From Escherichia coli (GTDB lineage Bacteria; Pseudomonadota; Gammaproteobacteria; Enterobacterales; Enterobacteriaceae), in the NCBI RefSeq assembly GCF_044324785.1, contig NZ_CP172127.1: a stretch of DNA of 64,000 nucleotides, one strand, 5' to 3'. Of this stretch, positions 11,168 to 13,339 are shown one piece after another; the stretch's first letter is position 1, and each line of letters opens with the position of its first letter. The notes beneath the pieces are model-generated. The model saw nothing but the letters and a program-made list of their open reading frames with translations. It was not told the origin of the DNA and did not search any database. The position numbers and the translations under genes are program-made.

Positions 11168-12209
11168 ATCAGATTTCGGGTAAGTCTCCCCCGTAGCGGG
11201 TTGTGTTTTCAGGCAATACGCACGCTTTCAGGCATACCTGCTTTCGTCATTTTGTTCAGCGCTCGTACCAGGGCCATAGCCTCCGCAACCTGACCATCGT
11301 AGTCACGCAGCGTCAGTGAACCCCCGAACAGCTGTTTTACCCGGTACATCGCCGTTTCCGCTATCGAGCGACGGTTGTAATCTGTTGTCCATTTCCACCG
11401 CGCATTACTCCCGGTCATTCGCTGATTAGCCACTGCACGGTTACGGTCTGCATATTCACCGGGCCAGTAACCCGCACCTTTTCGGGGAGGGATAAGCGCG
11501 CTGATTTTCTTACGCCGCAGTTCATCGTGACATAGCCGGGTATCGTAAGCGCCATCGGCGGCGGCTGACCTGATTTTCCGGTGGGTTTGCCGGATTAACC
11601 CGGGGAAGGCCTCTGAGTCCGTAACGTTGTTCAGCGACAGGTCAGCGCAGATGATTTCATGTGTTTTACTGTCAACGGCGAGATGCAGCTTACGCCAGAT
11701 ACGGCGGCGTTCCTGGCCATGCTTTTTGACTTTCCACTCGCCTTCACCGAAGACCTTCAGCCCGGTGGAATCAATTACCAGGTGTGCGATTTCACCCCGG
11801 GTGGGCGTTTTGAAACTGACATTAACCGACTTTGCCCGCCTGCTGACACAGCTGTAATCCGGGCAGCGTAGCGGAACGTTCATCAGAGAAAAAATGGAAT
11901 CAATAAAGCCCTGCGCAGCCCGCAGGGTCAGCCTGAATACGCGTTTAATGACCAGCACAGTAGTGATGGCAAGGTCAGAATAGCGCTGAGGTCTGCCTCG
12001 TGAAGAAGGTGTTGCTGACTCATACCAGGCCTGAATAGCTTCATCATCCAGCCAGAAAGTTATGGAGCCACGGTTGATGAGGGCTTTATTGTAGGTGGGC
12101 CAGTTGGTGATTTTGAACTTTTGCTTTGCCACGGAACGGTCTGCGTTGTCGGGAAGATACGTGATCTGATCCTTCAACTCAGCAAAAGTTCGATTTATTC
12201 AACAAAGCC
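11153..12209 (-). mobile_element. IS903-like insertion sequence (IS5 family), 1057 bp
   Basis: Perfect 18-bp terminal inverted repeats GGCTTTGTTGAATAAATC at 11153-11170 and (reverse complement) 12192-12209; element length 1057 bp; single transposase ORF. The flanking 9-mers GACTATAAC and GTTACCCGC differ, so there is no target-site duplication. Confidence 0.85.
11209..12177 (-). CDS. IS903-type transposase
   Basis: 322-aa product (M)KDQITYLPDNADRSVAKQKFKITNWPTYNKALINRGSITFWLDD... recognised; probable TTG start. Confidence 0.85.
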   Translation of the reverse strand: MKDQITYLPDNADRSVAKQKFKITNWPTYNKALINRGSITFWLDDEAIQAWYESATPSSRGRPQRYSDLAITTVLVIKRVFRLTLRAAQGFIDSIFSLMNVPLRCPDYSCVSRRAKSVNVSFKTPTRGEIAHLVIDSTGLKVFGEGEWKVKKHGQERRRIWRKLHLAVDSKTHEIICADLSLNNVTDSEAFPGLIRQTHRKIRSAAADGAYDTRLCHDELRRKKISALIPPRKGAGYWPGEYADRNRAVANQRMTGSNARWKWTTDYNRRSIAETAMYRVKQLFGGSLTLRDYDGQVAEAMALVRALNKMTKAGMPESVRIA

Positions 12210-13339
12210 GTTACCCGCTCTTCAATCTCATGCAATTGATTATGCAATATCGCATTTTCATCCTTTTGCCCGGCTAATGAGTGGGTAAGCGTCTCAACTT
12301 CTTGCTGTAATGCGGAGCTCCTGGCCTGGAAAAACTCAAGTTCCTTCAGAACCCGATCTTTAAGAGAGAATAGGTACTCTTCAGCTGACAGCGTGGTGAT
12401 CCTATGATGGGCGGCGGCGATAAATTCATCATAAAAATCATCACTCTTTGCATCCAGGGCAACAACAAACTCTTTCACTTGCTGATAAAACGGGTGAAAT
12501 GCCGGACCAGAAATCGTGTTTAAATGCCACTCAAGGAACACGACAACATAGTTTTTATAATCTCTGAGACGGTGTTCCATCATCCCCTGCTGACAGATAA
12601 ACGCTTTAAGCGCCACCAATGCTTCAACAGCACAGCGGTGCGACTCTGCTCGCGTGGCGGATAGGGATTCACTACGGTTGATGGTATGAGAAATTAACGT
12701 TTCATTTAAGACCGAAATTCTGTTCGCCATGAGCATAAATGCGCAGACGAAGAAAAGATCGTTGGTCGTCCTGATTTCCTGAAAGCGAAGCTGATGACTA
12801 GTAATAAATTGACGCCTGAGAAGCTTGTCCCATGGCCACCAGACAAAGGTGCGGAAAAAGTCAGAGGGAATATCCTGGGATGAAAAAAACTTGAGATCAG
12901 GTAACAGCTCCTGGCGCACTGACCACGGCATCGGAGCATAAACCTGCAAGGCGGGATCAAAAGACTGGCTGCGACAGATAACGACATCCGCTTGTATATC
13001 GCTAGCACGTGCGTACATGCGCTCCAACATCATGTTATCGACATAATCGTCGTCATCAAGAAAAATAACGTACTCACCGGTAGCAGCATCCAACCCGATG
13101 TTTCTTGAGCCTCCCCCACCAAGATTTGTCGTGTTGTTAATGACTCTAATTCGTGAATCAGTTTCAGCCAGCGCCGAGACAATCTCTAAGGTATTATCGT
13201 CAGAACAATCGTTGACAATAATGATTTCAATATCATTTAATGTTTGCGACAAAACAGTGCTCAATGTGTCGGAAATATATCCCGCCGCATTGTGCACAGG
13301 GATAATAACGGAAACAGCTATACTCTCTTTTTCAGACAT
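12179..13339 (-). CDS. Family-2 glycosyltransferase with C-terminal coiled-coil region; 3' end fused to IS903 inverted repeat
   Basis: N-terminal GT2 motifs (VSVIIPVHNAAGYISDTLSTVLSQT, DDDD); C-terminal heptad-rich region; last 13 codons (ERVTALLNKSNFC*) are IS903 IR sequence. Confidence 0.65.
   Translation of the reverse strand: MSEKESIAVSVIIPVHNAAGYISDTLSTVLSQTLNDIEIIIVNDCSDDNTLEIVSALAETDSRIRVINNTTNLGGGGSRNIGLDAATGEYVIFLDDDDYVDNMMLERMYARASDIQADVVICRSQSFDPALQVYAPMPWSVRQELLPDLKFFSSQDIPSDFFRTFVWWPWDKLLRRQFITSHQLRFQEIRTTNDLFFVCAFMLMANRISVLNETLISHTINRSESLSATRAESHRCAVEALVALKAFICQQGMMEHRLRDYKNYVVVFLEWHLNTISGPAFHPFYQQVKEFVVALDAKSDDFYDEFIAAAHHRITTLSAEEYLFSLKDRVLKELEFFQARSSALQQEVETLTHSLAGQKDENAILHNQLHEIEERVTALLNKSNFC

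Follow-up and report, generated by a model that had tools for sequence, protein, structure and literature searches.

The locus considered here raises the question of what a further glycosyltransferase gene contributes to a six-gene galactan-I operon in Escherichia coli, and whether a copy that has lost its 3′ end to an insertion sequence can still contribute it. In the window, the whole 64,000-nucleotide stretch of E. coli DNA that was analysed, this truncated gene is found directly downstream of wzm-wzt-wbbM-glf-wbbN-wbbO and on the same strand (Table 1). It has been shown to be a 3′-truncated accessory glycosyltransferase gene of galactan-I (Klebsiella O2a-type) loci, the Raoultella-type orthologue of the Klebsiella gene named ‘kfoC’. 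As to its role, the explanation considered probable here, with appreciable room for doubt, is that the family comprises accessory galactan-I glycosyltransferases that add one sugar, and that the copy in the window is an impaired remnant.

Table 1. Features of the galactan-I locus and of the IS903 junction, with positions in the window
Feature	Position	Strand	Remarks
hsdM (type I methylase)	9758-11152	plus	interrupted at codon 465, where the opposite IS903 end lies
IS903B, 1057 bp	11153-12209	minus	transposase ORF 11209-12177
IS903-encoded tail ALLNKSNFC and stop codon	12179-12208	minus	read through from the IS inverted repeat
Truncated GT2 coiled-coil glycosyltransferase ORF	12179-13339	minus	386 aa = 377 native + 9 IS-encoded residues, then stop
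Retained coiled coil, aa 319-377	12209-12385	minus	~8.4 of 14 native heptads; heptad score, Fourier test, AlphaFold2
Helical domain, aa 235-316	12392-12637	minus	AlphaFold2 helices; Foldseek matches span 305-346 alignment columns
GT2 (GT-A) catalytic core, aa 10-140	12920-13312	minus	Pfam PF00535
DxD motif D95-D98 of the GT2 core	13046-13057	minus	D95, D97 and D98 invariant in 49 homologues
Core galactan-I genes wbbO, wbbN, glf, wbbM, wzt, wzm	13461-20093	minus	proteins 99-100 % identical to Raoultella ornithinolytica
wbbO	13461-14606	minus	
wbbN	14607-15497	minus	
glf	15494-16648	minus	
wbbM	16667-18559	minus	
wzt, 246 aa	18574-19314	minus	
wzm	19314-20093	minus	
GGCGGTAGCGT, candidate ops-like sequence	20392-20402	minus	~300 bp upstream of wzm

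The reading frame opens with an ATG at position 13339, preceded a few bases upstream by AAGGTGA, and a scan for promoters and terminators between 11100 and 14000 returned the same counts as shuffled sequence. The product had been taken for a GT2 enzyme in the earlier note, which is borne out by a match to PF00535 (Glycos_transf_2) over aa 10-140 (E = 2.8e-39; score 135.2 bits, cut-off 23.3); a search of NCBIfam gave generic GT2 matches below threshold only (best 105 bits, cut-off 423). The window protein has all four residues of D95-D96-D97-D98, and D44, D95, D97, D98, D171 and D194 are invariant in a set of 49 homologues with 31-85 % identity to the reference protein P0001. Judging from these invariant residues, the family appears to be catalytically competent, and the catalytic domain of the window protein has an intact DxD motif. 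The GT-A fold is recovered in the AlphaFold2 model (pLDDT 92), which Foldseek relates to solved GT-A enzymes with a probability of 1.00. The identical 386-aa protein of E. coli SMS-3-5 (WP_001290565.1) is labelled ‘partial’ at NCBI.

What the native protein looks like can be read from the intact 434-aa form found in R. ornithinolytica and R. planticola. In this form, the heptad window score peaks at 26.3 over aa 320-410, compared with 15.8 ± 2.0 for whole-sequence shuffles, and the observed value is reached by 1 of 1000 composition-matched shuffles. The period-3.5 hydrophobicity power of native aa 319-416 in a Fourier test is 82.4 against 10.5 ± 10.4 in shuffles (reached by none of 2000), the heptad register runs continuously through all 14 heptads, and AlphaFold2 (mean pLDDT 92) renders residues 319-416 as one continuous helix of 98 residues; the same periodicity test applied to the helical domain (aa 235-316) gave a power of 1.8 and no heptad periodicity. 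These checks consist of an in-house heptad score, a Fourier test and a structure model. The helix of an AlphaFold monomer is no proof of oligomerisation. The native coil would be of the parallel type and, estimated from 1.5 Å per residue, about 14 nm long when fully extended.

The coiled-coil C-terminus claimed from the letters alone is thus upheld, three independent checks being positive and in agreement, whereas its extent had been overstated: the heptads are real, but they occupy the last ~60 of the 386 residues (about 16 %) and not the C-terminal third. Beyond the coil, native aa 417-434 form an 18-residue amphipathic segment with a hydrophobic moment of 0.65 and a net charge of +6 (helix 418-433 in the model), and a C-terminal motif, S-L-S-W-K/R..K/R-P-L/F-R, recurs among the closer orthologues. 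Between conserved flanks, the coil varies from 95 to 133 residues across orthologues, and coil and tail are full-length in 11 of the 12 orthologues of the census described below, the twelfth ending at a contig end. Sequence and model together show that the native 434-aa protein consists of a GT-A catalytic domain, a helical domain, a 98-residue coil and a basic amphipathic terminal helix.

The loss of the native C-terminus to IS903, also proposed in the earlier note, is confirmed in detail. The inverted repeat of the element ends at position 12209, inside the glycosyltransferase gene, and compared with the intact 434-aa orthologue aa 1-377 are kept and 57 native residues are missing, which amounts to 40 % of the coil and the entire terminal helix. 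The retained part differs from the intact orthologue by only three substitutions and keeps every invariant residue. When the 57 lost residues were sought in the window by tblastn, only a chance match was returned (E = 2.6). The element is flanked by gactataac on the left and gttacccgc on the right and is without a 9-bp target duplication; it therefore marks a deletion junction. The same gene-IS903 junction was found in 44 E. coli chromosomes, and the truncation in all 44 chromosomal E. coli copies found has been shown to go back to one ancestral IS903 event; the exact hsdM-IS903 junction of the window is absent from the 5,426 complete E. coli genomes searched. Plasmid-borne copies have been damaged separately, by a 1-bp frameshift and by an IS1 located within the native reading frame, 25 bp past the new stop.

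The surrounding locus is 99.3 % identical in DNA to that of Raoultella over 8.2 kb, and the island is of the Klebsiella O1/O2 type and derives from Raoultella. The region has its match in the island of E. coli O19 strain SMS-3-5, whose WbbY is 99 % identical to that of K. pneumoniae, and wbbY/wbbZ are additionally gone from the window. The gene wbbY, which encodes a galactan-I capping enzyme, was present in the ancestral island and has been deleted from the window, and owing to the loss of wbbY/wbbZ the island should specify an O2a-like rather than an O1-like glycan. The sole significant Pfam match of Wzt (246 aa) is the ABC_tran ATPase domain, and it is therefore without a carbohydrate-binding domain, as the earlier note had stated. 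Upstream of wzm, GGCGGTAGCGT is a candidate match to the ops consensus, although this type of pattern has two matches in the window and at least two occur in 9 of 100 shuffles, so that the sequence match alone is weak.

The distribution of the gene was assessed in a census of 26 species-level loci, each carrying all six core galactan-I genes; it is present in 12 and absent from 14, and is therefore regarded as accessory. Besides the window, it adjoins galactan-I genes in Raoultella, the K. oxytoca complex, K. aerogenes, Serratia, Shimwellia, Tatumella, Pantoea and Rouxiella. A WbbY-like gene is linked in none of the 12 loci with the glycosyltransferase gene and in 4 of the 14 without it, numbers too small for significance, so that the pattern counts as a lead and no more. 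A 424-aa GT2 protein encoded beside the Serratia orthologue was considered as a paralogue and rejected, the two sharing the GT2 core alone (34 % over 220 aa) and the neighbour being without a coil.

In K. pneumoniae, the protein P0014 matches the window protein with 57 % identity at 87 % coverage (E = 7e-129), and its gene sits between wbbO and gmlC; from position and length it is inferred to be the gene named kfoC. The two genes are alike in their position after wbbO, their strand, the build of the product from GT2, helical and coiled-coil parts, and in being frequent targets of IS elements. They differ in that K. pneumoniae kfoC encodes 402 aa, naturally without the basic terminal helix although with all invariant catalytic residues, whereas the window carries the Raoultella-type allele, which has 434 aa in its intact state and is here cut by IS903. 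No remnant of the terminal helix was found in any frame downstream of K. pneumoniae kfoC, and the 90 % identity cluster of its product has 2402 members. The view of a novel seventh gene ‘appended’ to the locus has to be abandoned: the gene is the positional orthologue of Klebsiella kfoC, recurs next to galactan-I genes and is already catalogued in Klebsiella under that name, which is a misnomer.

The function of kfoC has been described as unknown, and wzm-wbbO have been called the ‘mandatory’ genes (PMC7556023); the wb cluster has been given as six genes (PMC3299736), and every step of galactan-I assembly has been credited to WecA, WbbO, WbbN and WbbM (PMC11294581). Neither kfoC nor any seventh gene is mentioned in the PNAS 2023 O1 paper. 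IS disruption of kfoC is recurrent in K. pneumoniae ST258 (PMC7556023; PMC8546970), where its IS-mediated loss marks a respiratory-associated lineage (PMC8546970).

The BLASTP comparisons with WbbY, KfoC-like and WbdD/WbbB-type proteins that the earlier note had suggested were negative, for WbdD and WbbB within 25 PDB sequence matches. E. coli K4 KfoC is a two-module chondroitin polymerase, represented in the PDB by a chain of about 625 residues (2z86); the GT2 nucleotide-binding half is alike, but identity was rejected, the best-scoring alignment to 2z86/2z87 covering aa 8-105 only (E = 2e-17), and the Klebsiella gene name is an annotation carry-over from this polymerase. Identity with WbbY, which in K. 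pneumoniae O1 polymerises galactan II and caps galactan I, was likewise rejected. WbbY is also accessory, with a GT2 module and a short coil and basic helix at its end, but it has 740 aa with GT4 and GT2 modules, whereas the protein studied here has one GT module and shares 33 % identity with the WbbY of SMS-3-5 over 126 aa of generic GT2 sequence.

The closest relatives of solved structure lie elsewhere. The best sequence match in the PDB is 5hea (E = 4e-26), the CgT enzyme of Streptococcus dGT1, which also leads the Foldseek matches (E = 2e-20), together with S. aureus TarS and TarP and Listeria RmlT (E = 2e-20 to 1e-17 over 305-346 aligned columns; TM-score, normalised to the target, up to 0.77). 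All four are alike in having a GT-A core followed by a helical domain, and aa 235-316 correspond to the part of the fold that lies beyond the GT-A core in these matches; identity to the studied protein is 17-25 % only. Each of them adds a single sugar to an existing glycan; they oligomerise via C-terminal domains of globular shape, their substrates being teichoic acids or a glycoprotein. What sets the studied protein apart, in its native form, is the coiled coil, the basic terminal helix and its place in an O-antigen locus.

The intact protein is proposed to oligomerise through its coil, with the terminal helices presumably seating it on the inner membrane, at its cytoplasmic side, and holding the catalytic heads off the membrane. 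From there it would transfer a single sugar to galactan I that is still linked to undecaprenyl diphosphate and awaits export by Wzm/Wzt, the sugar forming either a terminal cap or a side branch; only the fold and the single GT module suggest single-sugar transfer. The protein would be dispensable for the synthesis and export of galactan I itself, and since Wzt is without a carbohydrate-binding domain, a cap would not serve export recognition. Modification or capping of galactan I by the intact protein is a reasonable hypothesis, but a doubtful one for the truncated copy, which is probably mislocalised or inactive, a remnant carried with a six-gene galactan-I operon that is still intact.

The alternative that the 386-aa protein is still active in E. 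coli and goes on modifying the island-encoded galactan I appears unlikely. Its catalytic and helical domains and 59 coil residues are intact, the few substitutions in aa 1-377 spare all invariant residues, and the K. pneumoniae protein is conserved as a large cluster despite lacking the terminal helix; as the latter keeps its catalytic residues, the anchor may be non-essential, and some activity might persist in the window copy. However, 40 % of the coil and a conserved tail are missing, and while the reading frame is open and unchanged in 44 chromosomes, the E. coli copies are identical by recent common descent and not by selection. The independent damage in plasmid-borne copies further suggests that the gene is dispensable once the locus has been mobilised, and the recurrent disruption of kfoC in ST258 (PMC7556023; PMC8546970) weighs in the same direction.

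A second alternative, which we regard as improbable, assigns the intact protein the role of a chain terminator with a molecular ruler, capping galactan I with the length of the coil setting the modal chain length, as in WbdD (E. coli O9a/K. pneumoniae O3), WbbB (O12) and ORF7 (O4), coiled-coil terminators from ABC-transporter-dependent O-antigen loci, the type of locus found here. Coiled coils, which the earlier note had said to occur in terminating enzymes of such pathways, are indeed their hallmark, and in WbdD the catalytic sites are N-terminal and are followed by a coiled coil and, at the C-terminus, by an amphipathic membrane helix (PMC11231755). Like these terminators, the native form begins with a catalytic head, continues in a long coiled coil and ends in what is predicted to be an amphipathic membrane helix; the window copy has lost this helix and keeps 59 of the 98 coil residues. 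The variation of the coil between conserved flanks would suit a ruler, and the gene fills a variable slot after the core genes that holds a WbbY-like capping polymerase in 4 other loci, linked WbbY being found in none of the 12 loci that have the gene (counts too small for significance). Nevertheless, the catalytic domain of the terminators is a kinase/methyltransferase or a Kdo transferase and that of the studied protein an ordinary GT2, and no sequence relation to known terminators emerged among its 25 PDB sequence matches, none of which is a WbdD or WbbB chain. The terminators also work with a CBM-bearing Wzt that recognises the terminal residue, whereas Wzt of the window has no CBM; half of the galactan-I loci lack the gene, and galactan I is not known to carry a terminal cap in structural work on Klebsiella O1/O2. 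The O2a system, by published account, works with neither a terminator nor a terminal-residue/CBM mechanism, with the coupling of polymerisation to export setting chain length (PMC10629545). The last two points, together with the lack of a CBM in Wzt, also weigh against a cap in the preferred reading.

That the protein is unrelated to galactan I, serving capsule, core or ECA instead or being a decaying passenger gene, is very improbable, for although the gene is missing from 14 of 26 loci, galactan I does not require it (PMC7556023; PMC11294581; PMC3299736), IS elements have entered it repeatedly and one distant homologue is solitary with no polysaccharide genes nearby, the linkage to the six genes is held across at least 8 genera at 37-57 % identity, even with gnd or other genes intervening, the catalytic residues are invariant, and coil and tail are full-length in 11 of the 12 census orthologues.

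The accessory single-sugar transferase remains the preferred reading, and its consequences lie mainly outside the window, where the gene itself is of little consequence, being a truncated remnant, already annotated and unneeded for galactan I; the island context, on the other hand, bears on the reading of E. coli serology. It is conceivable, although improbable, that the intact members in Raoultella, the K. oxytoca complex, K. aerogenes, Tatumella and Serratia are unrecognised galactan-I capping glycosyltransferases with the 95-133-residue coil as a ruler. If this were true, a terminator would exist in the galactan-I pathway, which currently stands in textbooks as the ABC-transporter-dependent O-antigen system without one, and structural work would have overlooked the cap by using K. 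pneumoniae, where the allele is without the membrane helix. The gene kfoC is listed in all Klebsiella O1/O2 locus definitions on which vaccine-oriented serotype prediction relies. The combination of a putative single-sugar transferase head, a coiled-coil stalk and a membrane helix offers a testable hypothesis, namely that the intact enzyme may add an extra residue to galactan I, possibly an unrecognised epitope.

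In the window, the GT2 protein encoded beside the galactan-I genes has one GT-A module, its catalytic motifs intact, and belongs to a family characterized by a long heptad coil followed by a basic amphipathic terminal segment; the linkage of this family to galactan-I genes is conserved. Its N-terminus matches Pfam Glycos_transf_2 (E = 2.8e-39), and the reading frame follows wbbO after 121 bp, on the strand shared with a complete galactan-I gene set. As the earlier note had claimed, Wzt lacks a carbohydrate-binding domain, an ABC_tran ATPase being its sole significant Pfam match. 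The sequence GGCGGTAGCGT, which we take to fit the ops consensus, is found at 20392-20402 (-), approximately 300 bp upstream of wzm, which is the position expected for an RfaH-dependent O-antigen operon. A further copy at 56673-56683 (+) may be a chance match; the pattern occurs twice in the window, and at least two matches were obtained in 9 of 100 shuffles.

Features of the galactan-I locus in the window, in transcription order, with the IS903 element and the Acyl_transf_3 genes of related loci (L numbers)
Feature	Sequence	Coordinates	Strand	Description
wzm	window	19314-20093	-	first in transcription order
wzt	window	18574-19314	-	second; 246 aa
wbbM	window	16667-18559	-	third; DUF4422 + GT8
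glf	window	15494-16648	-	fourth
wbbN	window	14607-15497	-	fifth
wbbO	window	13461-14606	-	sixth
GT2 ORF	window	12179-13339	-	386 aa, real ORF
IS903	window	11153-12209		terminal repeat GGCTTTGTTGAATAAATCG ends at 12209
Acyl_transf_3 gene	L010	11642-12661		
Acyl_transf_3 gene	L008	11602-12603		
Acyl_transf_3 gene	L005	6402-7502		
Acyl_transf_3 gene	L007	6535-7647		

The reading frame runs into the IS903 repeat, gaining ALLNKSNFC and a stop codon. Over aa 1-377 the window protein differs from the intact 434-aa orthologue P0001 (C-terminus ...EIYQHHKNLISSLSWKLTKPLRVVRRFFK) by three substitutions (A100V, R155Q and F355L) and is divergent beyond. The native C-terminus is thus lost to IS903, as had been proposed: 57 residues are gone, comprising 39 of the 98 residues of the coil and the entire terminal segment, and a search of the remaining window did not recover the lost stretch. 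The element lacks a target-site duplication and its opposite end interrupts hsdM at codon 465, which indicates that IS903 marks a deletion junction and did not simply insert.

The heptad pattern was judged in three independent ways. The heptad window score reaches a maximum of 26.3 at aa 320-410 (15.8 +/- 2.0 in whole-sequence shuffles), and a single composition-matched shuffle in 1000 scored as high. The hydrophobicity spectrum of native aa 319-416 has its maximum exactly at period 3.5, with a power of 82.4 (10.5 +/- 10.4 when shuffled; matched by 0 of 2000 shuffles) and a best register without a break across 14/14 heptads, while the helical domain ahead of the coil (aa 235-316) lacks this signal (power 1.8). 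AlphaFold2, run with a 49-sequence alignment (mean pLDDT 92, pTM 0.77), predicts a single continuous helix at 319-416 and a separate helix at 418-433. Together, the score, spectrum and model establish the heptad region as genuine, although in the window protein it occupies the last ~60 residues and not the last third, as first described.

Among 49 homologues (31-85% identity with P0001), the DxD residues D95, D97 and D98 are invariant in 49/49, as are D44, D171 (in the WWPWDK motif), D194 and several aromatic residues, which speaks for conservation of a catalytic function. The coil is poorly conserved in sequence and ranges in length from 95 to 133 residues; it is bounded by two conserved flanks, an EEYLFSLKDR motif at the start and a terminal S-L-S-W-K/R-x-T-K/R-P-L/F-R motif. 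With a hydrophobic moment of 0.65 and a net charge of +6, the C-terminal 18 residues fit what is expected of a helix lying in the plane of the membrane. Among solved structures, CgT (5hea), TarS, RmlT and TarP come closest, and the likeness spans the GT-A core and the helical domain after it; these enzymes are generally described as adding one sugar each to an existing polymer.

Existing annotations already include the gene, under the name kfoC in Klebsiella and as a 'partial' GT2 in E. coli. The K. pneumoniae orthologue P0014 (402 aa, 57% identity, 2402 cluster members) is flanked by wbbO and the gmlC-gmlB-gmlA genes, with hisI adjoining, and this is the position of kfoC in O1/O2 locus descriptions. 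The function of kfoC has been stated to be unknown, with wzm-wbbO termed the mandatory genes (PMC7556023); the wb cluster has been given as six genes (PMC3299736), and all assembly steps have been attributed to WecA, WbbO, WbbN and WbbM (PMC11294581). The name is a misnomer: identity with the K4 chondroitin polymerase KfoC was rejected, the alignment being limited to aa 8-105, and identity with WbbY was likewise rejected by sequence comparison. K. pneumoniae kfoC ends ...LLSSKD, right where other species start the conserved SLSWK..KPLR helix, and no remnant of that helix was found downstream (L003, the K. pneumoniae locus, 10120-10300); the allele of the best-studied species is therefore one that naturally lacks the tail.

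The six core genes are likewise accompanied downstream by an orthologue (37-57% identity) in K. aerogenes, K. michiganensis, K. grimontii, Raoultella, Serratia, Shimwellia, five Tatumella species, Pantoea sp. A4, Rouxiella and one further enterobacterium; gnd, an acyltransferase gene or other GT2 genes sometimes intervene. In a WbbM-anchored census of one genome per species, scoring the GT2 gene within 10 kb, 12 of 26 loci with the six core genes carried a kfoC-like gene and 14 did not, which marks it as a recurrent accessory of galactan-I loci and not a core component. WbbY-like genes (62-67% identity) lie downstream of the core genes in two Serratia and two Rosenbergiella species (L021, L025, L037, L038); none of the 12 kfoC-like loci had a linked WbbY and none of these four a kfoC-like gene, counts too small for significance. 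Adjoining or close to the kfoC-like gene, the Raoultella-type, K. aerogenes, Serratia and Shimwellia loci carry an Acyl_transf_3 gene whose product may O-acetylate galactan I; the E. coli island has no such gene.

The locus DNA matches a Raoultella-type contig at 99.3% identity over 8.2 kb, the corresponding values for K. pneumoniae and K. aerogenes being 72-73%. The seven proteins of the locus share 99-100% identity with their counterparts in the his-linked locus of Raoultella ornithinolytica NBRC 105727, and the 434-aa cluster members carry the names R. planticola or R. ornithinolytica. Window 7195-34279 matches the clpA-adjacent genomic island of E. coli SMS-3-5 (O19:H34), bar one missing stretch. 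The galactan locus is present at >=99% identity in 48 complete E. coli chromosomes, and the GT-IS903 junction is identical in 44/44 chromosomes matching across it and so arose once. The rest of the island (21717-23336 and ~23850-30600; names from the SMS-3-5 annotation) encodes an ISL3 transposase, a frameshifted TOTE-system primase-domain gene, an inovirus-type Gp2, a 607-aa hypothetical protein and a DUF3987 protein.

The missing stretch, ~9 kb of SMS-3-5 (L004 3959-12943), comprises the hsdM 3' end, IS1, wbbY, wbbZ, and IS256, ISKpn26 and IS3 remnants, with IS903 at the junction (window 11153) without target duplication; this context was overlooked in the earlier note. The ancestral wbbY and wbbZ share 99% identity with the K. 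pneumoniae genes responsible for extending galactan I with galactan II and its pyruvate cap (PMC4237132, PMC10629545). With these genes missing, the window should specify galactan I alone and not an O1-like galactan I + II. In E. coli, wbbYZ is kept in 34 chromosomes, compared with 48 for the galactan locus, and the exact hsdM-IS903 junction had 0 matches in 5,426 complete genomes. SMS-3-5 WbbY (L004 4985-7207) likewise finishes with a brief heptad run and a basic helix (...TSLVRRVARKVKSMLK), a C-terminal layout similar to that of the kfoC-like protein.

IS903-free copies of the GT2 gene are found on nine plasmids of Citrobacter, Enterobacter and E. coli. Both copies examined (L001, NZ_CP056588.1; L002, NZ_AP022397.1) carry a 1-bp deletion and frameshift yielding a 413-aa product ending FISITKI, with IS1 25 bp past the new stop, inside the native frame (L001 8864-9010, and L002); this damage is independent of the IS903 event. 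On the Citrobacter portucalensis plasmid (L002), a gmlABC/D-like side-branch module of gtrA-like, GT2 and glucosyltransferase-domain genes (5095-6449 and 2324-3718) alternates with ISEc68 copies beside the galactan locus, and wzt is apparently absent from the annotation (PLSDB gene table, stated to be incomplete).

The intact protein would oligomerize through its coiled coil, be tethered to the membrane on the cytoplasmic side, and put one residue, as a cap or branch, on lipid-linked galactan I before export. A role as a true terminator is disfavoured by a Wzt without a carbohydrate-binding domain, by the absence of the gene from half of the loci (14/26) and by descriptions of the O2a system without a terminal-moiety mechanism, extension-export coupling setting the chain length (PMC10629545). 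Without the anchor and 40% of the coil, the window copy most likely functions poorly or not at all; that the K. pneumoniae protein is likewise anchorless makes this uncertain. Both the independent lesions in plasmid copies and the recurrent IS insertions in kfoC of ST258 fit dispensability. The original observation of a coiled-coil GT2 cut by IS903 is confirmed, and its interpretation is supported in part, the GT2 assignment, the coil and the IS903 loss being correct.

A stalked, membrane-tethered single-sugar transferase of this build was not discussed in the literature searched. The prediction offers a testable hypothesis for a gene without an assigned function in a clinically important locus; its significance is modest for the window and somewhat greater for the family.
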